Counted from the stretch's first letter, positions 1,391 through 44,390 are shown. The stretch is 64,000 nt of DNA from an uncultured bacterium (GCA_937920515.1 CALEUG010000003.1:2108-66107); one strand, 5' to 3'. Numbers and translations are program-made. Notes: a model not told the origin generated them from the sequence alone.

Positions 1391-4300
1391 ATGGCTAAAT
1401 CAACAATAATGTGGACCGTTTGTCCCAACGGAATTAAGGATGGCAAGCTGCAGTTTTCGGCCGCAGTCTCCATACGCCTGGAAGAAGGCTCAGGCGGAAA
1501 AACCCCGAGCCTCAATTTTTTCCCGGAAATACTTAACTGGCCAGAAACCGTTAAGGCCATAAATTTTGGAGTTATTTACGATAAGAGAAAGGCTGCCGGG
1601 CCAGCCGAAATCAGGAGAACCTCACCAGACCCGGAACCTGAACTCTGGCAGGCCATCTTCAAGCCTGAAGCACCCGTCTTCAATTTCAAGATGGCCGACC
1701 TGAGCAAGAACCTGGTGATATCCTACCCGGTAAAGAATGTCCTGACCTTTGTAGCCTCTCAGTATCTTAACGTGGCCGCAGAATCGCCCGAAGAACCACC
1801 GCCGATAGAAAAAGTTTTCCACACCGAGGGCCTGGCTCAAATCAGGCTTAAGCCCATTACCGATGTCCGTTTTGCCCAGACTGTTCAGCTCCGGACCACC
1901 CGGCAGGTTATGGCCCAGTCAGTCAGGCGGGAGGCCGAGAGTCAGAAGATAAGAGCGGTCCAGGTCACTCCCCTGCCCCAGCCGCCTAAAGATTTCTTCT
2001 TGCTCCGTGATTTTCACAGGCCAAAAAACAGGATAACCTTTGACCCCAAGACTAAACAACCGATTGTCAGGAGGGTGCCCATCACCAGACCGGAGATAGA
2101 TTTCCACCAGGCCCTGGCCTTCCTCACCAATTATCCAGCACTGATGAGACTCCTGGGCCTGGCCGTTGATTTTGAGATGGAAGTGCCGTCAGATTTTCCG
2201 GCCAGCGGCTGGATTAAAATTGTACCCGGGGGCCGGAGCGACGAAACGCCGAGAACAGCATATAACTTTGACCCGGCCCGTGGAATCTTTGAGGCCGCTT
2301 CCAGCAAAAGGCCACCAGAGGTGGTCAGAGGCTTCTTAAACCTGGCCGATGAAGAACAATATGACCTTGTTCAGCTCGATGTCGATGCCATAGCCCTGAA
2401 AACGGCCGAGCTGGCCGACACGGCCGAGACCAGGGAAAAAGCGGAGCTTCCAGCCCTGCGCTCAAGTGGCCTGGGCGTTGTAAGAAATGAGCAGGCCAGG
2501 AACATGGCCGAAGTCCTGGTTCGGGCCGTGGAACTTAACAATGATTTGGTGCGCAAAAGGGAAATAACACTCTTCGCTGAAGATTTAGTGCAGGGCTACC
2601 GGGTCGATGTCTGGGACGAAAAATCCAGGAAATGGCATTCCCTCTGCCAGCGTATCGGAACTTACCGCTTCCTCCGGCTGGACAGAGAACTAACCCTGGA
2701 AGACGAAGGTTTTATATCACCCGCCGTGACCCAGTCGGCAGACGAATCATCCGAAGATATTTTCGCCCATGAATCTCTTTTTCACTGGGACGGCTGGAGC
2801 TTAGTGGCCCCCCGACCCGGAAAGACCATCGACCCGAACGATAATCCGCAAACTATCGAAAACAAAGCCCTTACCGATTTTCTGCTGGAAACCAGGTTCA
2901 GGCCCAGGCCGGGTTCTCTGCCCAGGTTAAGATACGGAGTTGGCTACAGGCTAAGGGCCAGAGCCGTCGACCTGGCCGGAAACAGCCAGCCCCTGGAAAA
3001 TCCTGACGACAGCTGTGCTATTCCACCTCCTTCCAAGCCACCCTTTACCTTCAGCCGTTTTGACCCAGTGCCCTCGCCCCTGGTCATACCCCGTGAAGCA
3101 CCTAAAAGCGGAGAGAACGTGGACCACGTGGTCATAAAGAGTTTTAACGAATCCATAGAGAAGGACAATGTGCCCACCAACCAGGTTTCCGACCGCCACC
3201 TGGCCCCGCCAAAAATCTCCCAGCTGGACTCTGAATTTCATGGGATGTTTGACAGCGCTTCCGGGTTGAAGCCCGAAGTCTATTCTCTGATATGCCAGCG
3301 GGATGGAGGCCGGTTTAAAGAAATGGAGCCGGGCGAGCAGATAGAACTTCCTTACTTCCCTGACCCCTGGGCTCGCGGGGCCTGTATCCGCGGCTTGCCT
3401 TACGGAGCGCCCGACCCGATGCTGATTGAATTTTCAGGCGACTGGCCGGATTACAGGCCGTTTAGAATCAGATTGCAGGAAGGCAGTCAGCCTGCCCGCT
3501 GGGATAATTCCTCCCGCCTTCTGACTGTTTACCTGAAAAAGGGAGAATCGGTTACGTTGCGCCTGAGCTGTTATTTCCCTGAAAGATTACTGCCCGTCCA
3601 GGGACTTTACCGCTGGCTGGAAAAACCTGAAAGGATTATCCCGCAAAAAGTCATGCAGCCGCCGCGGGGTCTACCCGAAGGCCAGGTCCAGGTCCTGAAA
3701 ACCCTCCAGCCGCCCCGAATTGACCTGGCCAGAGTGCGCACGCTTTCGCTTCAGGGGCGCAACTGGTTGATGACACCCTTCAGAGAGATTACCCTGATTC
3801 ATGCCACTCTGCAGCCTGTCGGTAAACCGCGTCATAAATCACTGGAAGCCCGGAGAACGCTCGGCCAGACCTCAGCCATTCTATACGGAGAGTTTGAGCT
3901 CCACGGGCCTAGCACCTCCAAGGCCGAACTTCTGGCCGACTGGAAAGAGCCGGTGGATTACCTTAACGAACCCGGACCCAGGGTCCTGGATGGCAAAGCT
4001 CATGTCCTGGAATTCAAGGTAGACCCGGCCCAGACCTCGCTGACCCTGACTCCAGGGCCTGAAGCCGGAAGGACAGCAGCTCAACCAGGTACGACCCAAC
4101 TTCAGACCAGGTCGGCTTCAGTGGCCATGGTCAGGGCCCCGCAGACTCCGGTTTACCGCCATGAATTCGGCGACACCAGGTTCAGAAGGGTCTACTATCG
4201 CCTGCTTACGACCACTAGGTACATGGAGCAATTTCCCTCGAACGAACTGCCGGAAGAAACCGGATACACCAGAAGCAGCGACCCGGTGGAAGTCAAGGTG

Positions 4301-5383
4301 CTCAACACAGCTCCACCGGCCATGCCGAAAGTCGTTTACGTGGTACCATCTTTTAAGTGGGAAAGGAGCAAGAAAGGCTCTCAGATTACCAGCTTCAGGA
4401 AGAGCGCCCTCCGGGTTTATTTAGAAAGGCCATGGTATTCAAGTGGCGAGGGGGAGCTCCTGGCAGTAATCCTGCCGCCGGGAATCACGGTAACCCCGAA
4501 AAAGCCGGTGGTCGCTCCGGCCAGCCGGGCCGACGCACCGCAGGTTTCCCAGAGGATTCAGCCCCAGCTCCAGAGGAAAACCGTGCCCGGGGCTCTTCAG
4601 GTGAGTGTTCCTCCGGTGGCCGAGAAATACAAGCCCTACGTTACCATGTGGGGAGCCGACCCCATCTGGAGGTCAGGACCGGTGGCTCCGCCCGAGTATC
4701 CGTTGCCGGATGCCTTCCCTTCGGCGGTGGAAATAATGGGAGACCTGCCGCTTCTGGAATTGCCGGAAGATAAGAAATTCATCGCCGTCGGCCACCAGGT
4801 TGAATATGACGCCGAGCGGCAGTTGTGGTTCTGCGACTTAGAACTTGATTCCGGCCAGGCTTACTTTCCGTTTATCAGGCTGGCTCTGGCCAGGTTCCAG
4901 CCAGATTCAGTAGCCGGAGCTCATCTGTCACAGGTGGTGGTGGCCAATTTCGCCCAGATTCTGCCCGAAAGGAACCTGACCGTGACTTTCAATCCTTCAA
5001 GCCTCAAGGAAATCAGCATCAGCCTGTCGGGTGTGTCTTACATCCAGGGTTATGCCGGCAGCGGCCCGGGTGAGGTGGAGGTGGCCCTGGAAACCAAGAA
5101 ATTGAACCTGCCCGACGAGCTGGGCTGGGAACCGGTCGAAGATGCGGTCATTACCCTGAAACCGCAGCGGGCCGGGGCCACAGAAGTCGGCTCGTTTATC
5201 TGGCAGGGAGTTCTTAAACTCCCCTCGGGCCTGAAAATCCAGGATTACAGAATTGCGGTCCGGGAATATGAATTATTCGACACCGACGAAATGGATAAAG
5301 CCGCCAGGACCGTAGCCGCCGTCACCCATAAAAAGTATAAACGTTTAATATACGCCGAGACCATCAAGCTTCTGGACCTTTAA
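1391..5383 (+). CDS. large hypothetical protein (1330 aa), Pro-rich, with no signal peptide, TM segment, Walker A or HExxH motif seen
   Basis: Uninterrupted 3993-nt ORF. RBS AGGGAGGA sits 6 nt upstream of ATG 1391, immediately after the upstream gene, so the two look like a co-operonic pair. No known catalytic motifs found by eye. Confidence 0.65.
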   Translation: MAKSTIMWTVCPNGIKDGKLQFSAAVSIRLEEGSGGKTPSLNFFPEILNWPETVKAINFGVIYDKRKAAGPAEIRRTSPDPEPELWQAIFKPEAPVFNFKMADLSKNLVISYPVKNVLTFVASQYLNVAAESPEEPPPIEKVFHTEGLAQIRLKPITDVRFAQTVQLRTTRQVMAQSVRREAESQKIRAVQVTPLPQPPKDFFLLRDFHRPKNRITFDPKTKQPIVRRVPITRPEIDFHQALAFLTNYPALMRLLGLAVDFEMEVPSDFPASGWIKIVPGGRSDETPRTAYNFDPARGIFEAASSKRPPEVVRGFLNLADEEQYDLVQLDVDAIALKTAELADTAETREKAELPALRSSGLGVVRNEQARNMAEVLVRAVELNNDLVRKREITLFAEDLVQGYRVDVWDEKSRKWHSLCQRIGTYRFLRLDRELTLEDEGFISPAVTQSADESSEDIFAHESLFHWDGWSLVAPRPGKTIDPNDNPQTIENKALTDFLLETRFRPRPGSLPRLRYGVGYRLRARAVDLAGNSQPLENPDDSCAIPPPSKPPFTFSRFDPVPSPLVIPREAPKSGENVDHVVIKSFNESIEKDNVPTNQVSDRHLAPPKISQLDSEFHGMFDSASGLKPEVYSLICQRDGGRFKEMEPGEQIELPYFPDPWARGACIRGLPYGAPDPMLIEFSGDWPDYRPFRIRLQEGSQPARWDNSSRLLTVYLKKGESVTLRLSCYFPERLLPVQGLYRWLEKPERIIPQKVMQPPRGLPEGQVQVLKTLQPPRIDLARVRTLSLQGRNWLMTPFREITLIHATLQPVGKPRHKSLEARRTLGQTSAILYGEFELHGPSTSKAELLADWKEPVDYLNEPGPRVLDGKAHVLEFKVDPAQTSLTLTPGPEAGRTAAQPGTTQLQTRSASVAMVRAPQTPVYRHEFGDTRFRRVYYRLLTTTRYMEQFPSNELPEETGYTRSSDPVEVKVLNTAPPAMPKVVYVVPSFKWERSKKGSQITSFRKSALRVYLERPWYSSGEGELLAVILPPGITVTPKKPVVAPASRADAPQVSQRIQPQLQRKTVPGALQVSVPPVAEKYKPYVTMWGADPIWRSGPVAPPEYPLPDAFPSAVEIMGDLPLLELPEDKKFIAVGHQVEYDAERQLWFCDLELDSGQAYFPFIRLALARFQPDSVAGAHLSQVVVANFAQILPERNLTVTFNPSSLKEISISLSGVSYIQGYAGSGPGEVEVALETKKLNLPDELGWEPVEDAVITLKPQRAGATEVGSFIWQGVLKLPSGLKIQDYRIAVREYELFDTDEMDKAARTVAAVTHKKYKRLIYAETIKLLDL

Positions 5384-12592: not shown

Positions 12593-15500
12593 TTACCTTA
12601 CATAAAGCTCATCAAACAGCATCCAGGCTTTCTGACCGGCATTGGGGAAACCCTCCGGGATTGTGCCAGGATTAACAGCCTTAACCCGGAGGAAGCGGCC
12701 TTCCGCACCGCGAAGTGAAACGTAGAGTGATTTCTGGGCTGGCCCCGGCGGCTTTTCGGGCAGGGCAAATTGTTTCTCGGCTACCTTTTCAAACTTTCGG
12801 CCGTCCAGAGAAACTTCCACTTCCACCCTGACCGGCAGGAAGACCCTGGCATTATTATTTTCGAGGCAGCTGAGCTCCAGCTCGTACAGGTCCTGTTTTC
12901 GTCCGAGGTCCAGTACCACCACCAGGTCATTCCCTTCGTAGCCCTGCCAGTTCTGATCCCTAACTTCAGGCCCGGCCTTAACCAGGTCAATGAGGGTCTT
13001 TTCGCCGGCCGCACCGGGACGGGAAGAAGCCGGAGGGCTGAAATATACGATATCTTTTATCGGGTAGGACTGGCTGTAAAAAGCCGTGGCCACCGGGCTC
13101 GGCTGCCGCCTTGGATGAAAAGCCATGGCTTTAAGAACCGCCGTGCCCCTGATTATTATCGGTCCCCCGTAGACCGGAGACTTTTCAGTCGGCTCGCTGC
13201 CATCCAGCGTATAGTGAATTTCGGCACCTTCCAGTCCAGCCCTGATGTTCACGCTGGCCGGCTCTGCAGGGCTGACATAGGCCCGGGCCGGCTCGATAAC
13301 CGGCAGCGGGACTACCTGCCATCTTTCATACTCGGCCTGGTTTCTTTTCAGCACGTCAAAGAGATTCCGGGCAGGACGGCTGTTGTCATTCTCGTTCCAG
13401 GCCACAGTCATGGCCAGGATTTTGATGGCCGGATTTACCGGCAACTTAACAGTCCGGGCTCCGGCCGGCAGTTCCACCGCATACTTCAACATGTATCCAT
13501 AGATATAAGCTTCGTTGCCCTCAACCGGATGATGGAGATGAGTGGTGAAAAAGGCCACGTTATCCTGCCGGGTATATCCCGGAACAACCCCGGTGTAGGT
13601 ATATTTTTCCCGGTCAAAATCAATTTTACCCGCCGGACCTTCGGCCCAGGTCCGGTTATCCCACTGGCCGATAAAGCCCGACCAGTAAGCCACCGGGATT
13701 TCCACGTTCTTTTCCCCCACCCTGAACAGACCTTTCTGATTTTCTTCGGCCGCCGCCGCCAGAATGTACAGACGGTTAAACTTTCCGTCAGGAATCTCTA
13801 TCTCCTGGCCCTCACAGGCCACGGCATTTCTCGCCCCGTCTGTCCGGGGCCCGAGCTTGAAGCTGAGGCTATCAGTCACAATTGTGTCAGGCACCCACTC
13901 GGCCGGGAAGCTGCGCCCGCTGGAATCAAAAGCGCCGTCCTGCCGGTTTTGGTCATGGCTGAAGACATCAACGTTGTACGGGAGTTCCACCGGAACCGAG
14001 AGCGGCGGGGTTAGCTGACTGGCAATCGGAAGAAGCTTTAAGGCAAAGGTTTTTATTCCAAAAGGATTCAGGTCAAAGACCAGCTTCCCCTCGCGCACCA
14101 CGGCCGGACCAATTTCCTCTTCCAATCCGTTCACTTCCCGGGCAGCGCTGATCCCGGTCAGGAAGGACAGGGTGGCTTTTTTTAAGCTCTGGCCTTTGGT
14201 CTCGACCAGTCTGATTATCACTTCATCTGAATTTTCGGCTTTCTTTATGGCCGAGATGTGGAGGTTATCGTGGCTGACTCTCAGGAAAGAAACATTCTGG
14301 CCCAGGCTGCCCTCATGGGAAACGGTCTGGAAGGCCAGAAGGGGCTGGTTAAGACGCAGGGCTTGTTGTCCGGTCCCACCCTGCCGCCAGTCCCCCTGGT
14401 GACCGTAAATGGCATACATAATTTCGTGCCGGCCGAAGTCCTGGGTGGCCTGCTCTCCGGGCCAGGACCGCACTCCAGGAGTATAAAGCAAGGTCAGACG
14501 AAGCATGTTGTCGGCCGGCTTATCGGAACCGTACTTGCAATCTTCCAGGATGGAAACACCGTAACCGCCTCTCTTATCGGTCAGGTCAAACCACAGGTGT
14601 GACGGCACCTCGAACTTCTTGGGGTCGTTGTTTCCCCGCTGAATTGTTCCCAGTCCCCAGTTGTAAGTGGCCAGCGGATTGGAGACTGTCAGCGGGAAGG
14701 CAGCTTTGAGAGACGATTCCCTGGTAGCCCAGTCAATCAGGTTGTAAAATTCCAGCCGGTCTCCTGCCGCACCGGCAGCCAGTCTTATATATTGAACAAA
14801 CTTAGAGCCACGGGCTTCCCTTTCGATTTCAATGGCCACCCTGGCCGGACCATTCTCTACCACAAAAACCCTGGCCGGTCCGGTCACATATCCGGAAGGG
14901 GGCTTCATCCGGTCTTCCCAGTCCATATTCCAGGCTGGCCACTGCTGCGGTTTTTCATGGTGGAAAGACAGCCTGGCGGAGGAAGCCAGCAATTCCCGGC
15001 GGGCTTTCTTGTCGAAGATACTCGACACCTCGCCCTCCCGGTTAAGCTTTACCAGATAGCGGCTGTTTTCCAGGTGGTTAGGGCTGACCTTCAAACCTGT
15101 GGCCAGGCGACAGGGCTCAGAGGAAGGCCTGACATCATAAACGCTGAACCCGACAGAAGGGACCGCGGCCAGAAAAATCAGCCTGACCGTATGTTCATTT
15201 TTTCCAAGAATCTGGGACGGCACTTCCCTGCCGTCCGGGGCAAAAACTCTAAGGTATTCAGCGGACTGCGGCAATTCCAGCTCGGCTTCCACCACATCTT
15301 CCCGGTCAAAAGCCAGCGGGTTGTAAACCACCACCGGATAACCCTTTACCCTGGTATCCAGGGCCCTGATGACCGCTCCAGCTGAATCCACAAGAACCGC
15401 GCTGAACTGGTTGGCGGCCAGGAACTCGTCGTTCCAGGAGAACTCATAGGCCCGCGGGATGCTGGTTCCGGGCAGAATATCATGAAACTGGGCGCCGAGG

Positions 15501-16609
15501 ACCAGGCGCCAGGCTTCGTTGATTTTTTCCCTGTTGTAGGATGCCCCACCCAGCCAGTCGGCTACCACTGCCGCCGCTTCAGCCGAATAGCCCAGGAACT
15601 CATTCTTGCGGTTCCAGCGTTTCATGGCTGCCTGGGAAGTGATGGAGCCAGCCGAATGGTTGGTCAGGAGAAACTCGCCACTGTAGGTGGGCAATCTTTT
15701 TTTCTGCGCTTCATTCAGGTTCAGGAAAAATTCATCGGCCCGGGCCGAAACCACCTTGAGGTCCGATTGCTGGCTGCTCTCCAGACTGAGCACCAGGTTC
15801 CGAACCGAGTTTTCATCCGGAGCCCCGCCGACATCTCCGGTTCCGAAATACATGTAATCGCCGTAGACACCGTACTTCTGCCCGTTTTCGCTGACTCTCA
15901 GCCTCCAGGTTGGATGCCGGGTCAGGTCGCCCGTTATCTTGCCGGTATAATCACCGGGATTGAGGGCGGCCACCACGAACTGGCCGTCCGGTCCGTACCA
16001 GGTCCCGACGTTAAAGGGAACCCCGACCGCCGAACCCCAGGTCAGCTTCTGGGTGGAAAAGCCTTTCAGGCCGCAATGGGCCAGGATGGAAGGAAGGGAA
16101 GCCGGGAAACCGAAGCAGTCGGGCAGCATGTACTCCTTGCTGCTGAACCCGAATTCCTTCTTGAAGTACTCGGTGCCATAAAGAATCTGCCTGATGATGG
16201 ATTCAAAGGACGGCACCATGACATCGTTTTCTTCCATCGATGAGCCTGAAGGAAACCAGCGCCCCCTGACCACGTAATCTTTAACCTTCGCATATTCCTT
16301 CGGGTAATATTCCTTCATCATACGGTAACGGTTGGCTCCGCTGAAATTAAAAACGTAACCCGGGTACTTCTCAAACAGGGCAAAATTATCGACCATGGTG
16401 TTCCAGATGTATTCTTTAATGGTCTTCTGGTAGTCCCAGCGCCACTGGGTATCGAGGTGGGCATAACCCACCGCAAACAGGACTTTTTGCCGGCTGAGGT
16501 CATAACCGCCCTGGCCGAAGGCTGGAAGTGCTGCCAGACCGGGGAGAAAAGAAAACAGGGTTATGATAAGGGCTAAAGTTTTTTTTACCTGGATAATTTT
16601 TTTAACCAT
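12593..16609 (-). CDS. glycoside hydrolase family 38 alpha-mannosidase, secreted, with long C-terminal extension (Fn3/chitobiase-like and discoidin-like segments)
   Basis: Signal peptide. GYAHLDTQWRW and LPDCFGFPASLPSILAHCGLKGFSTQKLTWG are GH38 N-terminal catalytic-domain signatures. 1338 aa. Confidence 0.85.
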   Translation of the reverse strand: MVKKIIQVKKTLALIITLFSFLPGLAALPAFGQGGYDLSRQKVLFAVGYAHLDTQWRWDYQKTIKEYIWNTMVDNFALFEKYPGYVFNFSGANRYRMMKEYYPKEYAKVKDYVVRGRWFPSGSSMEENDVMVPSFESIIRQILYGTEYFKKEFGFSSKEYMLPDCFGFPASLPSILAHCGLKGFSTQKLTWGSAVGVPFNVGTWYGPDGQFVVAALNPGDYTGKITGDLTRHPTWRLRVSENGQKYGVYGDYMYFGTGDVGGAPDENSVRNLVLSLESSQQSDLKVVSARADEFFLNLNEAQKKRLPTYSGEFLLTNHSAGSITSQAAMKRWNRKNEFLGYSAEAAAVVADWLGGASYNREKINEAWRLVLGAQFHDILPGTSIPRAYEFSWNDEFLAANQFSAVLVDSAGAVIRALDTRVKGYPVVVYNPLAFDREDVVEAELELPQSAEYLRVFAPDGREVPSQILGKNEHTVRLIFLAAVPSVGFSVYDVRPSSEPCRLATGLKVSPNHLENSRYLVKLNREGEVSSIFDKKARRELLASSARLSFHHEKPQQWPAWNMDWEDRMKPPSGYVTGPARVFVVENGPARVAIEIEREARGSKFVQYIRLAAGAAGDRLEFYNLIDWATRESSLKAAFPLTVSNPLATYNWGLGTIQRGNNDPKKFEVPSHLWFDLTDKRGGYGVSILEDCKYGSDKPADNMLRLTLLYTPGVRSWPGEQATQDFGRHEIMYAIYGHQGDWRQGGTGQQALRLNQPLLAFQTVSHEGSLGQNVSFLRVSHDNLHISAIKKAENSDEVIIRLVETKGQSLKKATLSFLTGISAAREVNGLEEEIGPAVVREGKLVFDLNPFGIKTFALKLLPIASQLTPPLSVPVELPYNVDVFSHDQNRQDGAFDSSGRSFPAEWVPDTIVTDSLSFKLGPRTDGARNAVACEGQEIEIPDGKFNRLYILAAAAEENQKGLFRVGEKNVEIPVAYWSGFIGQWDNRTWAEGPAGKIDFDREKYTYTGVVPGYTRQDNVAFFTTHLHHPVEGNEAYIYGYMLKYAVELPAGARTVKLPVNPAIKILAMTVAWNENDNSRPARNLFDVLKRNQAEYERWQVVPLPVIEPARAYVSPAEPASVNIRAGLEGAEIHYTLDGSEPTEKSPVYGGPIIIRGTAVLKAMAFHPRRQPSPVATAFYSQSYPIKDIVYFSPPASSRPGAAGEKTLIDLVKAGPEVRDQNWQGYEGNDLVVVLDLGRKQDLYELELSCLENNNARVFLPVRVEVEVSLDGRKFEKVAEKQFALPEKPPGPAQKSLYVSLRGAEGRFLRVKAVNPGTIPEGFPNAGQKAWMLFDELYVR

Positions 16610-17023
16610 ATTAAACCCCTTGTTATGAATAACAAAATAATTAATTCACAAACGGCAGCGGGTGTCAACCGGGCCCGGGATAACAAACCGTAGGGCTCTT
16701 TATCAATCCTGCCTCTAATTATCAGACCGGCGGACCAGAACTGTCTTGATGCACTCCATGGTCAAGCCGGGCCGGACGAAGAGCCCAGGCCCCGGGCCAT
16801 CAGGCTAAAAGCTATCCCGGGTGAAAAAAAATGAAAACAAGAAAAGCAAGCAAGCAGAAAAACATCCGGTTAAGCCCCAAGTATTAATCGGGTTAAAAGA
16901 AATTTCTAAACCGAATCACGTTCCAGCACAAAGCGGTAATATTAACTTTCTGTGTTCAGGTCTGTTCAACCACAGAGAAAGCGACTGGCGCCGGGGCACC
17001 GGGCCCTGGCAGGGCTCACCGCC

Positions 17024-18337
17024 TCAATCGTAATATTCCAGGCCCAGGTGGGTAATCAGTTCTTCGCCTTTGATGTAGCGCAGGGTATTCTTGAGCTTCA
17101 TCAGCTGGATGAACAGGTCATGCTCCGGATAGAGTTCGGGGGCACACATCGGAGTCTTGAAATAGAAGGACAGCCACTCCTGGATTCCCCTGAAACCTGC
17201 TCTCTGGGCCAGGTCCATGAACAGCACCAGGTCCAGCACGATGGGCGCAGCCAGGATGCTGTCGCGGCAGAGAAAATCAATCTTGATCTGCATGGGATAT
17301 CCCAGCCAGCCAAAAATGTCGATGTTATCCCAGCCTTCCTTATTATCTCCGCGCGGCGGATAATAGTTGATGCGGACCTTATGATAAAACTTACCATAAA
17401 GCTCGGGATAAATTTCCGGCTGTAATATGTATTCCAGGGCACCGAGCTTGCTTTCTTCCTTGGTCTTAAAAGACTCGGGGTCATCCAGGACTTCCCCGTC
17501 CCGATTGCCCAGGATGTTGGTGGAAAACCAGCCTTGCAATCCGAGCAGCCTGGCCTTAAGCCCCGGGGCCACGATAGTCTTCATCAGGGTCTGTCCGGTC
17601 TTGAAATCCTTTCCAGCTATGGGAACGTTATGCTGCCTGGCCAGTTCCACCATGGCCGGGATATCCACGGTCAGGTTGGGAGCGCCGTTGATGAAAGGAA
17701 CACCCGACTTGATGGCGGCATAAGCATAGACCATGCTGGGAGCGATGGCCGGATGGTTTTCCTTCATGGCCTTTTCCAGGGATTCTATGGTCTGATGCAC
17801 TGGTTCCGGCTTGAGGTAAATCTCGGTACTGGCACACCAGATCATGACCAGCCGGTTCAGGGAATTTTCTTCCTTGAATTTCTTGATATCGTCCATTAAT
17901 TTAAGGGCCAGCTCGTACTTATTGGACCCCGTTTTCTTATTGGGTCCATCCAGCTTTTTGACATAATTGCGGTCAAAAACTGCCGGCATCGGCTTTATCT
18001 GCTCCAGCTCATCCCTGACCGGCTCCAGGTGCTCTTTTCTCAAAACTCCGGCTTTGACCGCGGCTTCGTAGGCGTTATCGGGGAAAATGTCCCAGCCGGC
18101 AAAAACCAGGTCATTGAGTTCGGCCAGCTCCACAAAATCCTTTATCCGGGGAACTCTTTTTTCGGTCCTTTTGCCCAGACGGATCGTTCCCATCTGGGTA
18201 AGAGAGCCAAAAGGTTTGCCCAGTCCTTTTCTGGCCAGAAAAACCCCGGCCATGAAAGTTGTGCTCACCGCCCCGATGCCCGGAATCAGGACTCCGAGTT
18301 TTCCTTCCGGGCTCTTGATTTCAACCTTTCCCTTCAT
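17024..18337 (-). CDS. ino1: myo-inositol-1-phosphate synthase (inositol-3-phosphate synthase)
   Basis: Matches the MIPS family: NAD-binding GVLIPGIGAVSTTFMAG, SMVYAYAAIKSGVPFINGAPN, AGKDFKTGQTLMKTIVAP, AAPIVLDLVLFM, FYFKTPM. Start set at the ATG after GGAGG (ORF track extends to 18439). Confidence 0.85.
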   Translation of the reverse strand: MKGKVEIKSPEGKLGVLIPGIGAVSTTFMAGVFLARKGLGKPFGSLTQMGTIRLGKRTEKRVPRIKDFVELAELNDLVFAGWDIFPDNAYEAAVKAGVLRKEHLEPVRDELEQIKPMPAVFDRNYVKKLDGPNKKTGSNKYELALKLMDDIKKFKEENSLNRLVMIWCASTEIYLKPEPVHQTIESLEKAMKENHPAIAPSMVYAYAAIKSGVPFINGAPNLTVDIPAMVELARQHNVPIAGKDFKTGQTLMKTIVAPGLKARLLGLQGWFSTNILGNRDGEVLDDPESFKTKEESKLGALEYILQPEIYPELYGKFYHKVRINYYPPRGDNKEGWDNIDIFGWLGYPMQIKIDFLCRDSILAAPIVLDLVLFMDLAQRAGFRGIQEWLSFYFKTPMCAPELYPEHDLFIQLMKLKNTLRYIKGEELITHLGLEYYD

Positions 18338-18656
18338 GACCGCCTCCTCACTCTTAATAAAAAACCGGATAGCAGGCTCAAGAATTTGCTGAACAAAGCA
18401 ACAGATTTTAAGATTATCATAGGGTTTTTTTGGTTTCAAGCTGTCCTTCCAGCCCGGGTTACCATTTTTGCTGTAAGTACCACTGGCCAGGGTAAGCGGT
18501 CGTCATAATCGAGATTCTAACGGGTAAGATTTTCCTCTCGTTAAAGCTTCTTCCTGACGGCCGGGGCTCTTTATTACCCGGGACCAGAGCCTAACTTTCC
18601 GGCTCACCCTGTCGCCCAATCCATCCCCAGACCGGCCAGAAGGCAACTCGATTTCG

Positions 18657-18714
18657 CGTAGATTTTCCTGTGAGGCAACTAATCATTTTCAAGTAGATTT
18701 CAAGTGAGGCAATT
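18657..18714 (+). promoter_or_regulatory. two about 22-nt imperfect direct repeats (GTAGATTTtcCTGTGAGGCAACT / GTAGATTTCAAGTGAGGCAATT) in the divergent MIPS/CDP-alcohol transferase intergenic region; candidate operator
   Basis: Core GTGAGGCAA at 18670-18678 and 18704-18712, spaced 34 nt apart. Confidence 0.35.
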
Positions 18715-18756
18715 CGTCAAATTGATTTTTTTACCCATAATAATTATAATTTTCAA

Positions 18757-19401
18757 ATGATGGTCAGCTATGACAACAAAGGATTCAGGCTTCTCCCCAG
18801 GAATCTGATTATCTTCGTCCTGGAAGTTTTTGACCGTTTCTCCCTGTTACTGGTCAGGTTAAAACTGAGCCCTAACCTTCTCAGTTTCCTGGGGCTTTTG
18901 GCCGGCCTGCTGGTGGGACTGTTCTTTGCCCTCGGAAGATGGGGCTGGGCGCTGGTCTTCCTGATTATCTGCGGGATTCTGGATATCCTTGACGGCAAGG
19001 TGGCCACCAACAGTAACCGGCGGACGGTTTTCGGAGCGGTTTTCGACTCCAGCCTTGATCGCTACTCGGAGTTTGCCATCTACCTCGGCCTGGGATTTTA
19101 TTTCGGACCTCATTGGGTTCTATGGGTTCTGGCTCTGGCCTTCCTTGGCTCGACTATGGTCAGCTACACCAGGGCCCGGGCTGAAAGCCTTGGAGTCAGC
19201 TGTCAACTGGGGATTATGCAGCGAGCTGAAAGAATGGTGCTGCTCATTATCGGCACCCTGTTAAGCCTGATTGTCGCCCACCGAGAAAAGGTAATTATAA
19301 CGGTCATAATAATACTGGCGGTGGCCTCCAACCTTACTGCCATCCAGAGAATTATCCACGTCTATCAGGCTGAAAGAAAGAGGGCCAGTCTCCAGGGCTG
19401 A
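18757..19401 (+). CDS. CDP-alcohol phosphatidyltransferase family protein, putative phosphatidylinositol-phosphate synthase
   Basis: Multi-TM protein with the D-G-x2-A-T...G-x3-D-x3-D motif (DILDGKVAT...GAVFDSSLD). Sits divergent from MIPS. Confidence 0.7.
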   Translation: MMVSYDNKGFRLLPRNLIIFVLEVFDRFSLLLVRLKLSPNLLSFLGLLAGLLVGLFFALGRWGWALVFLIICGILDILDGKVATNSNRRTVFGAVFDSSLDRYSEFAIYLGLGFYFGPHWVLWVLALAFLGSTMVSYTRARAESLGVSCQLGIMQRAERMVLLIIGTLLSLIVAHREKVIITVIIILAVASNLTAIQRIIHVYQAERKRASLQG

Positions 19402-19426
19402 GCCGCACGGCCTCAAGTATTATTAC

Positions 19427-20773
19427 TTACTTTTTTGCTTTTTTCACCCTGGCCGCTTTTTTCCCGGCAGACTGTATCCTGACCTTCCGTTCCCTGGCCC
19501 AGCCTGGTTTCTGCACCTGGCGGGCCCGGGCGATGGCCAGGGCCTCCGGCTTTACGTTTTCGGTGATGGTGGAGCCGGCAGCCACATAGGCTCCGCGTCC
19601 TACCCGGACTGGAGCCACCAGCTCAGTGCCTGAACCAATGAAAGCCTCTCGTCCGATAAAAGTCCTGCTCTTCCTCACTCCGTCGTAATTGCAGGTGATG
19701 GTTCCGGCACCCACGTTGACGTTCTTTTCAACCCGGGTGTCACCCAGGTAGCTGAGGTGCATGGCTTTAGAACCTTCACCGAAGACCGTTTTCTTCATTT
19801 CCACAAAATTGCCAACCCGGCTTCCCCGGCGCAGCCTGGTTTCTGGCCTCAGCCTGGAAAACGGCCCGACCTGGGCTTCGTCATCTATTCGGCAGCCCTC
19901 AATAACCGTGGCCCCGTGCACCGTGACCCTGTTTCCCAGCCTGCTATTAATGATATGACAGTGGGGATAAACCAGGCAATCTTTGCCAAGCTGACTTCTG
20001 CCCTCAATAACCACTGATGGATAGATGACTGTTCCCCGCCCGATTTTGGCCCAGGGATCAATCCAGACCGAGGCCGGGTCCAGAAAGAACACCTCCCTTT
20101 TTTCCAGCTCGGCTATCTTGGCCTTCCTTAGAAATTCAGCCACCCTGCCATAATCGGCCAGGGAATTAACCGGAATGAAAGACTCTTTCTCGGCCTCCTT
20201 TACCCAGTAAAAGCCTATCCTCAATCCAGCAGTCCAGGCTGCCTCAACCAGGGCCACCACGTCAAGCTGACCAGAGGGCTTGAACGGACGGACCTGCCTG
20301 AGCCATTTGCGCTGGCCGTCAAGGGAAATCAGGGCCAGGCCGGGGCGGACAAAATAATCCTCTAACGGCCGATCTCCACGGGAACTGATTCTTTCACCGA
20401 TCAGGGTAAGGTCATAACCCGATTTTTGATGAAAGGCCAGAACCTTTTTGAGGAAACCAGCATCCCTTGGAAAAAATTCTGCCGTAATCAGGATCAGCTC
20501 CCCGGTTGTTTTTGCCTTTTTAATCTTCTCCATCAGGGTAAAAAGAGAACACGAGAGAGCCTCAAGCGGAAGGACCCAAACCAGTTTTTTCCAGACTTCA
20601 GGCAAATCTTCAGGCCGGGAATGCAGCAGGCCGACTCGCTCCGGGTTTAGTCTGGCCAGGGTTTCCAGCCGGCTGTTCAGAAGCGAGGAGCCAGAAACGA
20701 TTGAAGGCAATTTTATTTTCTGGCCGCCCGAAACATCATCTCCGCAGGCCAGAACCAGGAGTTTGTTTTTCAT
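19427..20773 (-). CDS. glmU: GlmU homologue: N-terminal nucleotidyltransferase-like domain (divergent) plus C-terminal left-handed beta-helix glucosamine-1-phosphate N-acetyltransferase domain
   Basis: C-terminal half is close to E. coli GlmU (NFVEMKK...GSKA.HLSYLGD...NVNVGAGTITCNYDG..K..T.IG...FIGS.T.LVAPV.VG...AAGSTIT..V...ALAI.R..Q..K.GW). N-terminal LAAGKGTRM motif is replaced by LACGDDVSGGQKI. Confidence 0.7.
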   Translation of the reverse strand: MKNKLLVLACGDDVSGGQKIKLPSIVSGSSLLNSRLETLARLNPERVGLLHSRPEDLPEVWKKLVWVLPLEALSCSLFTLMEKIKKAKTTGELILITAEFFPRDAGFLKKVLAFHQKSGYDLTLIGERISSRGDRPLEDYFVRPGLALISLDGQRKWLRQVRPFKPSGQLDVVALVEAAWTAGLRIGFYWVKEAEKESFIPVNSLADYGRVAEFLRKAKIAELEKREVFFLDPASVWIDPWAKIGRGTVIYPSVVIEGRSQLGKDCLVYPHCHIINSRLGNRVTVHGATVIEGCRIDDEAQVGPFSRLRPETRLRRGSRVGNFVEMKKTVFGEGSKAMHLSYLGDTRVEKNVNVGAGTITCNYDGVRKSRTFIGREAFIGSGTELVAPVRVGRGAYVAAGSTITENVKPEALAIARARQVQKPGWARERKVRIQSAGKKAARVKKAKK

Positions 20774-38821: not shown

Positions 38822-40318
38822 ATGAACACTAACCCGGACCTTAAAAGAAGAACAATCTGTCTGACCTTAGTCCTGGTACTTACTCTATCTGTCTTTAGCC
38901 GGCTGTCCGCGGCCGAACTGCCCGCCCGTCTCCAGAAGGCGGTTCAAAGCATAGACCCGCTCCTGGCCTACCAGCTCACCAGAACCATGGCCTCGGAAGA
39001 ATTTGCCGGCCGCCTGACCGGCCACGAAGGCTACACCAGGGCAGCCCGCTGGGCCGCAGCCAAATTCAAGGAATGGGGCCTCAGACCGCTCGATGCCAGG
39101 AACGGTTATCTACAGCCCTATCCCTCTCCCTATACCATCATAGACCAGGCCTCAATGACTCTTCACCTGCCGGGCAAGACCGGAAGTGACGGCCAGCCTC
39201 AATATGAAACGGTGGAGCTGAAGCCAGAAAAGGATTTCCTGCCGCTTCTTTACTCGGACTCAGGAAACCACACGGCCGGCCTGGTCTTTGCCGGCTGGGG
39301 TATCTCCGCTCCTGAACTCAACTATGACGATTATGCCGGAGTGGATGTAAAGGGCAAGTTTGTTCTCTGTTTCCGCGGCACGCCGGACCCGGGCCGGCGC
39401 GAGTTCCAGCACCACGACGAACACCGGACCAGGATGAAGGTGGCCAGAGATAAAGGAGCCCTCGGTCTTATCTACATTTATCCCGAAGCCCAGGCCAACC
39501 CCAACGGTGACTGGTTGTCCGGTTTCATGCCAGGCATGATAACCGAAAAAACTGCCGACCTGGTTTTCAAAGAAATCAATTCCACCACGGCCGAATTGAA
39601 AAAAGCGCTGCAGACCTTCAAGCGGCCCATTTCCTTCGACCTCAAGGCCCGTCTGTCTTACCGGGTGAGCTCCAGGCATTTCCCCGAGGCCATCGGCTAT
39701 AACATCGCCGGCTGGGTGGAAGGCTCCGACCCGAAGCTGAAGAAAGAACTGATCATCATCGGCGGCCATTTCGACCATTGCGGCCAGCACCTGGGCCTTC
39801 TCTTTCCGGGGGCAGATGACAATGCCAGCGGCTCGGCCGTGGTGATGACCCTGGCCAAAACTTTTGCTTCCCTGAACCCGAAGCCCAAAAGGTCGGTCAT
39901 GTTTGTACTTTTCGGAGGCGAAGAGCTGGGCCTGCAGGGTTCCACCTACTTTGCCGACCATCTTCCGGCCGGTTTTAACCGGGTGGTGGCCATGTTCAAC
40001 TTTGATATGGTAGGTGCAGGTGACGGCGCCTGGTGCGGGGTCAGCGCCGAGCCACCCTCACTCAAAGAAGCCATCGAAAAAGCCAACCAGGAAATAAACA
40101 TCATAAGGGGCTACGGGGTGATCAGGAACATCGGGGTCAGGAGTTCAGATTTCGCGCCATTCTTCCAGAAGGGGATTCCCTGCGCCAGTCTCGGCTCCAA
40201 TGGACCCCATCTGGCCTACCATGGAACTGGCGATACCATCTACCGCATCAACCCCGAGATCATGGGCAGCATCGCCCGGGTATCTTTCCTGGCAGTCTAT
40301 TTCCTGGCTGAAAAATAG
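38822..40318 (+). CDS. M28 family zinc aminopeptidase with PA domain, secreted (paralogue of 34945-36492)
   Basis: IIIGGHFDHCGQ, DDNASGSAVVMTLAKTF, FVLFGGEELGLQGSTYF. Same domain order as the other copy. Confidence 0.8.
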   Translation: MNTNPDLKRRTICLTLVLVLTLSVFSRLSAAELPARLQKAVQSIDPLLAYQLTRTMASEEFAGRLTGHEGYTRAARWAAAKFKEWGLRPLDARNGYLQPYPSPYTIIDQASMTLHLPGKTGSDGQPQYETVELKPEKDFLPLLYSDSGNHTAGLVFAGWGISAPELNYDDYAGVDVKGKFVLCFRGTPDPGRREFQHHDEHRTRMKVARDKGALGLIYIYPEAQANPNGDWLSGFMPGMITEKTADLVFKEINSTTAELKKALQTFKRPISFDLKARLSYRVSSRHFPEAIGYNIAGWVEGSDPKLKKELIIIGGHFDHCGQHLGLLFPGADDNASGSAVVMTLAKTFASLNPKPKRSVMFVLFGGEELGLQGSTYFADHLPAGFNRVVAMFNFDMVGAGDGAWCGVSAEPPSLKEAIEKANQEINIIRGYGVIRNIGVRSSDFAPFFQKGIPCASLGSNGPHLAYHGTGDTIYRINPEIMGSIARVSFLAVYFLAEK

Positions 40319-40349
40319 CTTTACAATAATAAAAGGTGAGGCTGAGAAA

Positions 40350-40991
40350 ATGAGAATAGCCAGAGAAGGTTCAATATTTTACCTGCCATCACTCGTTGTT
40401 TTTTTCCTGACCCTGGTACTCGGCTGGTGGCTGGCCAGCCTGTTTTTCCTGCTGCTATCAGCGGCTTTTCTTTTCTTCTTCCGCGACCCGGACAGGCAGC
40501 CGCCGCCGGGCGAGAACCTGGTGCTGTCGCCGGCCGACGGACAGGTTATAAAAATAGAAGAATTTCCCAGTCATCCGGACCTGGCCGGTTCCGGGACAGT
40601 CGTCAGCATCTTTCTCTCTCTGCTCGACGTTCATTTCACCCGCTCTCCCTTCTCGGCCGAGGTTAAAAGAGTTGATTACCGGCCCGGCAAATTTTTCCCG
40701 GCCTACCGGAAAGAAGCCAGCAGCCAGAATGAATCCAGCAGCCTGTTATTGCACGGAGAAAGGGGCCCGGTCTTCTTAAAGCAGATGGTCGGGATTGCTG
40801 CCAGGCGCATAAAATGTTATGTTAAGCCCGGAGACAGAGTGGCCGCCGGGCAGAAAATCGGCCTGATGTATTTTGGCTCGCGGGTTGATCTCTACTTGCC
40901 CGACCGGGTTGACCTTAAAGTTGGTCTGAACCAGAAAGTTAAAGGCGGCCTGACCATCATCGGAGAGTGGCGAGATGAAAGTCAGAATTAA
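40350..40991 (+). CDS. psd: phosphatidylserine decarboxylase-related protein (short archaeal-type PSD proenzyme)
   Basis: N-terminal TM segment, then LSPADGQV...FLS..DVH core and a C-terminal GS cleavage-type region (YFGSRVD). Start set at ATG 40350 after AGGTGAGG (ORF track extends into the upstream gene). Confidence 0.7.
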   Translation: MRIAREGSIFYLPSLVVFFLTLVLGWWLASLFFLLLSAAFLFFFRDPDRQPPPGENLVLSPADGQVIKIEEFPSHPDLAGSGTVVSIFLSLLDVHFTRSPFSAEVKRVDYRPGKFFPAYRKEASSQNESSSLLLHGERGPVFLKQMVGIAARRIKCYVKPGDRVAAGQKIGLMYFGSRVDLYLPDRVDLKVGLNQKVKGGLTIIGEWRDESQN

Positions 40992-41757
40992 GCAGCCGGT
41001 TCGCCGGCTCTATTTCCTGCCCAGCGTTTTTACTCTGACCAACGTCTTCTTCGGCTTTCTCAGCCTGACCTCAACCTTCTATGGACGTTACCGCTGGGCG
41101 GCTCTCTGGATCATCATTGCGGCCCTGCTGGACGGGCTGGACGGCCTGGTGGCCAGAGCCACCAGGACCAGCTCTGATTTCGGCATACAGCTGGATTCCC
41201 TGGCCGACGCCATCTCCTTCGCCGCGGCGGCTTCCCTTCTGATGTACTTCTGGGGTCTCAAAGTCCTGGGACCGGCCGGAATATTTTTCAGCTTCCTTTT
41301 CATAGTGGGCGGCTTGCTCCGGCTGGCCCGTTACAACATCAGAACCAAGAGCCTGCCCGACCGGCGCTTTTACCAGGGACTGACCGTGCCTTCAGCCGCC
41401 ATTTTCCTGGCCTCGCTGGTCATATTTAGCCCGGAGCCGAACTATCAAACCTGGAACGCCTTTTACCTGTCCGCCCTGGTGGTAACAGTAAGCCTGCTGA
41501 TGATCAGCACTCTTCGCTACCGGAACTTCGTTTCGTTAATCATTAACCGGCCGGTGGACATGAAAACAGGATTGTTGCTGGCCGTGGTCCTGACCGGACT
41601 GCTTTTCCGTCCGAAATACTTCCTGCTGCTCTTCACCACCATCAACGTTCTCTATGGACCCGTGGATTTCCTGGTGCTGAAATTAAGAAGAAAGGCAGCG
41701 CCCAGAACCGCGGCTGAAAAGCACGAGGCCGGCAAACCCCTCGACTTCAAGGAATAG
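40975..41757 (+). CDS. pssA: CDP-diacylglycerol--serine O-phosphatidyltransferase
   Basis: CDP-alcohol phosphatidyltransferase motif DGLDGLVAR...G...D...D (LLDGLDGLVARATRTSSDFGIQLDSLADAISF). Multi-TM. Overlaps psd by 17 nt. Confidence 0.8.
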   Translation: MKVRIKQPVRRLYFLPSVFTLTNVFFGFLSLTSTFYGRYRWAALWIIIAALLDGLDGLVARATRTSSDFGIQLDSLADAISFAAAASLLMYFWGLKVLGPAGIFFSFLFIVGGLLRLARYNIRTKSLPDRRFYQGLTVPSAAIFLASLVIFSPEPNYQTWNAFYLSALVVTVSLLMISTLRYRNFVSLIINRPVDMKTGLLLAVVLTGLLFRPKYFLLLFTTINVLYGPVDFLVLKLRRKAAPRTAAEKHEAGKPLDFKE

Positions 41758-43289: not shown

Positions 43290-44390
43290 ATGAAAATCAC
43301 CATCAGTGTCTTGAAAGCCGATATCGGCAGCATCGGCGGCCATATCAAGCCCAGCCTGGCCCTTCTCCAGGAAATCAGGAATTTCATGGCCGCCAGCAGC
43401 CGTGACCTGTTGATTGATTATTACATCAGCTCAACCGGTGATGACATCGCCATCCTCTGCACTCATACCCGGGGAACCGGGGACAAGCAGGTCCACCAGC
43501 TGGCCTGGGAAGCCTTCCAGGCCGGGACAGCCGTGGCCAGGAAGACCGGGCTGTATGGAGCAGGCCAGGACCTGCTAAAGGATTCTTTTTCTGGAAACGT
43601 CAAGGGCCTGGGACCGGCCGTGGCCGAAATGGAAATCGAGGAAAGGGAAAACGAACCGTTTCTTTTCTTCGCAGCCGATAAAACCGACCCCGGGGCCTAT
43701 AACCTGCCATTTTACCTGGCCTTCGCCGACCCCATGTACTGCTCCGGTCTTATCCTCAGCCCGAAAATGAGCCAGGGTTATAAATTCCGCATCATCGATG
43801 TCAGCTACATCGAAAAGAACAGGGTAATCGAACTGGTGGCGCCAGAAGAACTTTACGACATCGCCGCCCTGCTGCGGGACACGGAAAAATACGTCATCGA
43901 AAGCATCTGGTCACGCAGCACCGGAAACCAGGCCGTGGCCATTTCCACCCAGCGCCTGCACAACATCGCCGGCAAGTACACCGGAAAAGACGACCCGGTG
44001 GCTCTGGTCCGGGTCCAGGGAGAGTTCCCGGCCACCGGAGAAGTCCTGGCTCCGTTCAACATCGGGCATTATGTGGCCGGCTTCATGCGCGGCAGCCACA
44101 TCGGACCGCTGATGCCCTGCCGGCTCAACGCCACCGTATCTTATTTTGACGGCCCGCCGGTGGTGACCGGAGCGGCCTTTTCCATGAAGGAAGGGCGCCT
44201 CTCAGAGCCGGCCGATGTTTTCGACCATCCCTACTGGGACGCTATTCGGGCCCAGATTGCTCAAAAGGCCTCGGAAATCAGGCGCCAGGGATTCTGCGGA
44301 CCTTCGATGCTGCCCTACTCCGAGCTGGAGTACGGCGGGGTGGTGGAAAAATTGAAGCAGCTGGAAAAGAGGTTTGCCCTTTCTGATTGA
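43290..44390 (+). CDS. fbp: fructose-1,6-bisphosphate aldolase/phosphatase (bifunctional, archaeal/deep-bacterial type V FBPase)
   Basis: Diagnostic N-terminus [18 protein letters not shown]. Conserved GPAVAEME and YxxGxxxxP regions. 366 aa. Confidence 0.85.

Follow-up and report, generated by a model that had tools for sequence, protein, structure and literature searches.

Inositol phospholipids are regarded as rare in bacteria, with reports of them coming from Actinobacteria, some Bacteroidetes, and spirochaetes (PMC9246714); Actinobacteria, Bacteroidetes, and Archaea are known to have the pathway (PMC4634129, PMC9246714, PMC9385802). In Bacteroides the myo-inositol-1-phosphate synthase (MIPS) BT_1526 has been crystallised and genetically validated, and its role in inositol lipid synthesis is established (PMC9246714). 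The gene pair described here lies at positions 17,024 to 19,401 of a 64,000-nucleotide stretch of DNA from an uncultured bacterium (GCA_937920515.1 CALEUG010000003.1:2108-66107; the whole stretch is called the window below). It consists of a MIPS gene and, divergent from it, a gene for a CDP-alcohol phosphotransferase (the transferase) resembling the synthases of phosphatidylinositol phosphate (PIP).

The two genes probably form the head-group branch of inositol phospholipid synthesis in Candidatus Saccharicenans. MIPS would make inositol phosphate and the transferase would attach inositol-1-phosphate to a membrane lipid, yielding PIP (predicted reaction: CDP-diacylglycerol + inositol-1-P → PIP + CMP). 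An unlinked phosphatase would then convert PIP to phosphatidylinositol. Transcription is predicted to be divergent, from two separate promoters that each lie beside their own gene.

The closest homologues of the transferase in a database search are Candidatus Saccharicenans and Aminicenantes entries. The local gene order (GH38 mannosidase, MIPS on the minus strand, transferase on the plus strand, GlmU-like gene on the minus strand, TPR, LarB, DnaG) is common to ten genomes (L001-L010), which are species representatives of the Saccharicenans group. Judged by these homologues and this common order, the window is a segment of a Saccharicenans chromosome. It also encodes rpoD, gyrAB, a Psd-PssA pair, and the dcw cell-wall cluster. 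The Aminicenantes are an abundant uncultured lineage of the subsurface and of anaerobic digesters.

By its domains and homologues, the gene at 17024-18337 (minus strand) is a myo-inositol-1-phosphate synthase. The protein of 437 aa is of the long, Bacteroides/eukaryote-like type, and both of its Pfam domains are above threshold (PF07994: E 1.6e-107, 360 bits; PF01658: E 1.5e-30, 106 bits). Against PDB 7NWR, the BT_1526 MIPS, it scores 578 bits, and residues 4-426 are about 65% identical; it misses the actinobacterial INO1 equivalog (TIGR03450: 25 bits vs a cutoff of 638). Orthologues in L001-L010 are 87-96% identical. They and the PDB homologue all align from the ATG at 18337. A TTG at 18439, which starts the longest open reading frame (ORF), was considered and rejected as an over-extension, because the alignments to the orthologues and to the solved Bacteroides enzyme begin at ATG 18337, a GGAGG lies 5 nt upstream of that codon, and in L001 and L008 the whole spacer measures only 147-161 bp. 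The TTG turned out to be the first base of the conserved -35-like TTGAAA of the candidate MIPS promoter described below. The true spacer between the two genes is 18338-18756, 419 bp long; the sequence-only reading, with its MIPS start at the TTG, had put the divergent region at 317 bp.

The gene at 18757-19401 (plus strand) encodes a 214-aa PIP-synthase-like CDP-alcohol phosphotransferase whose predicted acceptor, from Pfam, NCBIfam, PDB, tree, fold, and residue comparisons, is inositol-1-phosphate. Its orthologues mostly begin at the second ATG, 18760. Residues 38-187 match PF01066 (61.1 bits vs a gathering cutoff of 22). The NCBIfam models rank in the order AIPS (NF040950, 153.8 bits), PIPS, the PIP synthase model (NF045883, 120), BT_1523-type PIPS (NF052561, 117), IPCT/DIPPS (NF041135, 53), and ClsA (30). 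When the sequence is compared with the PDB, the Renibacterium PIP synthase (RsPIPS) is matched at 2.5e-21 and M. tuberculosis (Mt) PgsA1 at 1e-16, followed by DIPPS and AF2299 at about 1e-5. The AlphaFold model (pLDDT 89.5) has seven helices, an N-terminal juxtamembrane helix and six transmembrane (TM) helices. The top 14 Foldseek matches of this model are PIP synthases of Renibacterium, M. tuberculosis, and M. kansasii (TM-score 0.70-0.77, E about 1e-8); DIPPS and AF2299 rank below them at 1e-5, and PSS, CEPT1, and PgsA follow at E>0.02. A neighbour-joining (NJ) tree, made by a fast distance method, unites the Aminicenantes sequences in one clade (89/100), nested in a large radiation to which the Rs and Mt PIP synthases also belong. 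Outside this PIPS-like radiation fall two PgsAs, the PssA of the window itself, and the DIPPS/AF2299 group (99/100).

The inositol-phosphate pocket is retained. In Mt PgsA1, structure, docking, and mutagenesis have assigned inositol-phosphate binding to R155, R195, S132, and K135 (PMC4634129), and further binding residues are R94, Y133, and R137 (PMC6506517). In the transferase R94, S132, Y133, K135, R137, R155, and R195 correspond to R102, S136, Y137, R139, R141, R159, and R198. All of these except R139 are invariant or nearly so in the 123 members of the Aminicenantes clade. R139 alternates conservatively with Lys (R in 93 and K in 30 clade members), and Lys is the residue that Mt PgsA1 carries there. 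P153 of Mt PgsA1 is replaced by Ala157.

The gene neighbourhood was counted over 32 Aminicenantes loci that carry the transferase. MIPS adjoins the transferase in 22 of them, in three arrangements and with two types of MIPS. The long type stands beside the transferase in 12 loci, being divergent in 9 (plus the window) and co-directional immediately upstream in 3. In 10 further loci (L016, L018, L019, L021, L023, L026, L028, L029, L032, L033) a different MIPS is found immediately downstream of the transferase. This protein is of the actinobacterial type, 370 aa long, and only 24% identical to the window MIPS (e.g. L021 5649-6761); it scores 474 bits on TIGR03450, below the 638-bit cutoff. The recurrent linkage is strong evidence that transferase and MIPS work together. 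A swap of MIPS type beside the same transferase is difficult to account for if the transferase has no need of inositol phosphate. This makes the swap a clean example of gene neighbourhood backing a predicted substrate. The proposal that MIPS is divergent from a PIP-synthase-like transferase, made in the sequence-only reading, is thus upheld by Pfam, NCBIfam, PDB, Foldseek, the NJ tree, the pocket residues, and the linkage to MIPS.

Other genes recur at these loci as well. A CarboxypepD_reg + TonB Plug protein of about 940 aa and outer-membrane type lies directly 3' of the inositol genes in 14 loci (L012, L016, L018-L021, L024-L026, L028, L029, L031-L033; e.g. L021 6781-9597). A search of the 64-kb window found no homologue of it. 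In Bacteroides the inositol cluster is flanked by the CarboxypepD_reg-like protein BT_1527 (Heaver et al., PMC9246714). In L016, L020, L026, L028, and L033 the gene of an ArsA/Get3-like ATPase with a C-terminal HSP20-like domain directly precedes that of the transferase, both being on one strand (e.g. L016 3373-4536).

Public databases (JGI and some NCBI records) name close homologues of the transferase 'CDP-diacylglycerol--glycerol-3-phosphate 3-phosphatidyltransferase', that is PgsA. If these names were right, the transferase would be an ordinary phosphatidylglycerophosphate synthase and its place next to MIPS a coincidence. This is extremely improbable. The NCBIfam scan gave no match to the PgsA model TIGR00560 at E<=1e-3, and a distant homologue reaches 26.7 bits vs a cutoff of 109. 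The S. aureus PgsA structure 7DRJ, which was present in the PDB set, is unmatched by the transferase even at E<=1, and the Foldseek matches to PgsA have E values of 0.06-0.13 and TM-scores of about 0.5. PgsA has no equivalents of R159 and R198, and linkage to MIPS recurs in three independent arrangements. The expectation that the transferase would not group with PgsA has held, as PgsA, PssA, and DIPPS are all placed outside by the NJ tree and no PgsA model is matched. The PgsA name on many of the homologues is probably wrong.

Several observations weigh against the transferase being a PIP synthase that makes the lipid proposed here. All of the curated equivalog cutoffs are missed (AIPS 153.8 vs 180; PIPS 120 vs 170; BT_1523-type 117 vs 350), and the top raw score belongs to the archaeal AIPS model. 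In the NJ tree the split of the PIPS-like ingroup from all outgroups (PgsA, PssA, DIPPS/AF2299) received only 60/100; the tree contains no labelled AIPS or BT_1523 sequences, and placement relative to these two comes from hidden Markov model (HMM) scores only. The signature Arg of the superfamily (R76 in Mt PgsA1) is Thr84 in the transferase and is Arg in none of the 123 clade members, which carry T (40), V (29), A (24), K (18), and others. Lastly, neither the window genes that were scanned nor the conserved neighbours in the related loci include a PIP phosphatase of the PgpA, PAP2, or HAD type. The PIP-to-phosphatidylinositol step was long unassigned in Actinobacteria too (PMC4634129).

The loss of the Arg is best seen against the rest of the signature. 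Class I CDP-alcohol phosphotransferases share D1xxD2G1xxAR...G2xxxD3xxxD4, whose eight residues are described as absolutely conserved (PMC4634129). The Arg of this motif is R76 in Mt PgsA1, where it and G72 coordinate the alpha-phosphate of CDP-diacylglycerol (PMC6506517). The variant found in the transferase is D76xxD79G80K81xA83T84...G93xxxD97xxxD101. The other seven residues (D76, D79, G80, A83, G93, D97, D101) are invariant in the 123 clade members, and the position three residues before the lost Arg is basic in every one of them (K in 120, R in 3; K81 in the window). Among the 136 nearest cluster representatives from outside Aminicenantes, 126 have the signature Arg and 7 have Lys in its place, and the position equivalent to K81 is unconstrained. 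Judged from the alignments, the positive charge seems to have shifted along TM2 by one helical turn, with the Arg lost and K81 fixed. Nature has in effect run an experiment on the CDP-alcohol phosphotransferase signature in this clade: the residue that contacts the alpha-phosphate is gone from every member and the rest of the active site is retained.

What this means for the enzymes can be read in two ways. The chances are about even that they are ordinary PIP synthases using CDP-diacylglycerol, in which the signature Arg is dispensable once the charge has been relocated. It is unlikely that they constitute a functionally distinct clade in which Arg loss and the fixed Lys may accompany a non-canonical donor, such as an ether- or archaeol-type CDP-lipid, a reading with which the top score on the archaeal AIPS model would agree. 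Were that so, an entire uncultured bacterial class would be making archaeal-like or otherwise unusual inositol phospholipids. The transferase belongs to a distinct variant clade that most likely works like PIP synthase. It is filed outside the curated PIPS, AIPS, and BT_1523 families because the defining signature residue is missing and the equivalog cutoffs are not reached.

We favour CDP-diacylglycerol as the donor because the window encodes both Psd and PssA. The phosphatidylserine decarboxylase (Psd; 40200-40991, plus strand) overlaps the next gene, a second CDP-alcohol transferase (PssA; 40975-41757, plus strand) that passes the bacterial pssA equivalog (TIGR00473: 109.9 bits vs a cutoff of 107). 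The two make up a route from phosphatidylserine to phosphatidylethanolamine, about 21 kb from the inositol gene pair. A transferase closer to AIPS would keep inositol-1-phosphate as its acceptor and draw its donor from the CDP-lipids of ether or isoprenoid type, either CDP-archaeol or a bacterial ether analogue. AIPS is indeed the top NCBIfam score in the window and in distant homologues (153.8 vs 120 for PIPS in the window), and a CDP-binding signature that lacks its Arg could go with a different donor. However, the AIPS cutoff of 180 is missed. The AIPS > PIPS ranking repeats in distant Aminicenantes homologues and also in a Dehalococcoidia relative with the canonical signature, and the window PssA likewise scores higher raw bits on an archaeal model yet passes the bacterial pssA cutoff. 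Since PssA and a bacterial relative with the canonical signature show the like pattern, the AIPS ranking tells little about the lipid type. The window contains the bacterial PssA and Psd and an acyl-CoA-synthetase-like gene, and no archaeal lipid gene was seen in it. An ether- or isoprenoid-type donor is therefore decidedly improbable.

The inositol phosphate could also end up in a soluble solute, with the transferase acting like a DIPP synthase on CDP-inositol and inositol-1-phosphate, as in hyperthermophiles. Saccharicenans metagenome-assembled genomes (MAGs) come from thermal habitats, and DIPPS is itself a membrane CDP-alcohol transferase with an inositol-phosphate acceptor and the RxxR arginines in common. 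One of the related loci, L022, encodes a full IPCT/DIPPS-like protein beside the pair. The transferase, however, scores 53 bits on NF041135 vs a cutoff of 580, DIPPS and AF2299 form their separate clade (99/100), the window contains neither an IPCT domain nor an IPCT gene, and the transferase has no N-terminal NTP-transferase domain. The presence of DIPPS-like and PIPS-like genes together in L022 argues for two distinct functions. A solute synthase is accordingly a very unlikely identity for the window's transferase, and PIP synthesis remains the preferred reading. The L022 protein (1842-3167, minus strand) is a full-length bifunctional IPCT/DIPPS-like enzyme encoded divergently from MIPS and the PIPS-like gene (NF041135: 318 bits; PDB 4MND: 1.8e-52). 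This suggests, from gene content, that the L022 MAG may make the di-myo-inositol phosphate solute as well as inositol lipid.

When eleven Saccharicenans-group spacers (the window and L001-L010) are compared, two conserved blocks stand out, one beside each gene. On the MIPS side, a Shine-Dalgarno GGAGG (18343-18347, minus strand) stands 5 nt before the ATG at 18337, and GGAGG or AGGAG is found in all ten orthologous spacers. Further upstream is a candidate MIPS promoter (18411-18439, minus strand), with a -35 TTGAAA (18439-18434), a 17-nt spacer that includes a TG (18419-18418), and a -10 TAATCT (18416-18411). The pattern cTTGAAn-N14-TGnTAAnnT is positionally conserved in the window and in all ten genomes. 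This promoter is deduced from conservation only; its -10 is weak and a consensus scanner did not list it. Taken at face value the MIPS side looks like an extended -10 promoter with a leader of about 65-70 nt that carries a Shine-Dalgarno sequence.

On the transferase side the block is a sigma-70-type promoter, TTGATT-17 nt-TATAAT (18722-18750, plus strand), with 10/12 consensus positions and 88% identity among species. In 11 of 11 Saccharicenans-group loci TTGATT-N17-TATAAT is followed 6-9 nt on by the ATG, without a Shine-Dalgarno sequence; the gap in the window is 6 nt. A start site 7 nt past the -10 box falls on the A of the ATG (18757). From this spacing, the transferase mRNA is probably leaderless or near-leaderless, with a predicted start at about 18757. 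Distant Aminicenantes have another promoter-like block and a 30-40-nt leader upstream of the transferase, and the leaderless arrangement would therefore be specific to the genus-level Saccharicenans group.

The two promoter blocks are nearly back to back in L001 and L008, and about 200-270 bp apart in the window and in L002-L004. The intervening sequence at 18447-18643 is found only in these four species and is poorly conserved (mean pairwise identity 43%). It was considered as a mobile element or decayed gene, and this was rejected since it contains no ORF, and neither the rest of the window nor any of 43 loci carries another copy of it. A noncoding RNA or riboswitch in the spacer was likewise rejected, as a permissive Rfam scan of 16400-19600 was blank and the fold z-score was -0.6 on both strands.

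The part of the insert nearest the transferase contains two direct repeats. Two repeats of about 22 nt had been reported at 18657-18714 in the sequence-only reading, and they are present there, GTAGATTTTCCTGTGAGGCAA spanning 18658-18678 and GTAGATTTCAAGTGAGGCAA 18693-18712. Each is part of a longer unit of about 34 nt; the two units match at 25 of 33 aligned positions, with one indel. Copy 1 occupies 18652-18685 (plus strand; -105 to -72 from the predicted transferase start; 63% identity over four species) and copy 2 18687-18719 (plus strand; -70 to -38; 62% identity over four species), the latter abutting the -35 box. What weakens the case for them is that a direct repeat as good or better arises in 9 of 300 dinucleotide-preserving shuffles of the spacer, so that they exceed chance only marginally.

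It was also proposed that the repeats bind a regulator controlling both genes. In the form assessed here, the two 34-nt units would be transcription-factor sites that activate the transferase promoter or co-regulate both genes. Their position (-105 to -38) is in the region bound by class I activators, their period of about 34-35 bp is near three helical turns, only 3% of the shuffles reach their score, and an AGGCWA/ATTCG-like core is loosely recognisable at the same position in L002-L004. The comparative data point the other way. In nine orthologous spacers the best direct repeat is never the homologous stretch, and L001 and L006-L010 lack the region altogether, so that conservation of the repeats between orthologous intergenic regions is essentially absent. 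Where the region exists, in four species, the repeats are 62-63% identical, which is not above the MIPS 4-fold synonymous sites (69%) and below the core promoter (88%). The best-conserved part of copy 2 is its promoter-proximal end (ATTCGYCAAA). A pattern search with up to 3 mismatches found no repeat motif elsewhere in the 64 kb, as it returns only copy 1, and the motif was rejected as a regulon signature on the ground that it is confined to this site. Of the two promoters, only that of the transferase has the repeats just upstream of it; the MIPS promoter is about 210-280 bp away from them, and no regulator gene adjoins the gene pair. Regulatory sites are thus an unlikely explanation, and joint control of both genes finds no backing in this layout. 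Most likely, on the alignments, the repeats are a lineage-specific local duplication or a chance similarity without detectable constraint, and they do not appear important.

A different duplication was seen in L006 and L007. In these two species the promoter block of the transferase occurs in the spacer a second time, in degenerate form (CCAGnTTnCT...TTCCAG...AAATTAnAATTT), about 115 bp upstream of the real promoter. This duplication of the promoter block differs from the repeat duplication of the window.

Immediately downstream of MIPS lies a GH38 alpha-mannosidase gene (12593-16609, minus strand; 1338 aa, with C-terminal chitobiase/Fn3-associated domains), a neighbourhood that is kept in L001-L004, L006, L007, L009, and L010. 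The window and the related loci gave no evidence tying this gene to inositol lipid glycosylation. On the other side, a GlmU-like gene (19427-20773, minus strand) is convergent with the transferase. Its acetyltransferase (LbH) half is retained, and its N-terminal nucleotidyltransferase part has a degenerate version (LVLACGDDVSGGQ) of the motif LxxAGxGTR; the motif is degenerate in all orthologues of the Saccharicenans group as well. In distant Aminicenantes the gene has the canonical motif and adjoins glmS. The possibility that it is a cryptic inositol-phosphate cytidylyltransferase was rejected: the Saccharicenans motif is degenerate and not re-specialised, and elsewhere the gene is a canonical GlmU beside GlmS.

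Farther away, two adjacent large ORFs (126-1376, 416 aa, and 1391-5383, 1330 aa, both on the plus strand) have no Pfam or NCBIfam matches. A class V (archaeal-type) fructose-1,6-bisphosphate aldolase/phosphatase is encoded at 43290-44390 (plus strand; PF01950 at 6e-159), and 3' of it come a NUDIX-DUF2007 protein and, after that, the MraZ-to-FtsA dcw cluster.

A search of a paper library returned no report of inositol lipids in Aminicenantes or Saccharicenans, and inositol phospholipids are here predicted to be a conserved trait of Aminicenantes. Three points give the locus an interest beyond what was first noticed: the whole clade has lost the signature Arg, the transferase transcript is probably leaderless, and the MIPS type has been swapped. 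The route had been called uncommon in bacteria, which overstates the case, as the transferase family numbers 6,339 cluster representatives in public data at E<=1e-3 and 2,674 (50%-identity clusters) at E<=1e-10. 'Uncommon' fits the characterised organisms, not sequence space.

Among described systems, the BT_1522-BT_1526 cluster of B. thetaiotaomicron (Heaver et al. 2022, PMC9246714) has the same type of MIPS (about 65% identical to BT_1526), next to which there is a PIP-synthase-like CDP-alcohol transferase, and the predicted route in both runs through a PIP intermediate. As with BT_1527 beside the Bacteroides cluster, a protein with a CarboxypepD_reg domain lies next to the inositol genes in other Aminicenantes. 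The window differs in that its transferase has lost the signature Arg and falls short of the BT_1523 cutoff (117 bits vs 350). The pair has no nearby PgpA-type PIP phosphatase (BT_1525), IPC synthase (BT_1522), or GtrA-like gene, and its genes are divergent, whereas the Bacteroides genes form one operon.

The IPCT/DIPPS of A. fulgidus (PDB 4MND) and AF2299 share the superfamily, the fold, the inositol-phosphate acceptor, and the RxxR motif with the transferase, but belong to a separate clade (99/100; 53 bits vs 580). The transferase has no cytidylyltransferase or extramembrane domain, and the DIPPS donor is soluble. The archaeal AIPS (Morii et al. 2009, 2014, as cited in PMC9385802) is similar in its acceptor, inositol-1-phosphate, and gives the highest HMM score (153.8). 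The transferase is under the AIPS cutoff of 180, however, and comes from a bacterium; PssA and Psd are encoded in the same window.

The actinobacterial PgsA1/PIPS + Ino1 system (M. tuberculosis Rv2612c; R. salmoninarum; PDB 6H59, 5D92) is unlike the window pair in several respects. The identity of the transferases is about 27-30%, and the window protein reaches 120 bits vs the PIPS cutoff of 170. R76 has become T84 with a fixed K81, and Mt P153 has become Ala157. The window MIPS is not of the actinobacterial type (TIGR03450: 25 bits), although other Aminicenantes use that type. On the other hand, the PIP phosphatase is unlinked in both, and the size and the layout of a juxtamembrane helix followed by six TM helices are the same. 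The four catalytic Asp and the inositol-phosphate pocket are kept in the transferase (with Mt K135 as Arg139), and these actinobacterial enzymes are its closest solved structures in both sequence and fold.

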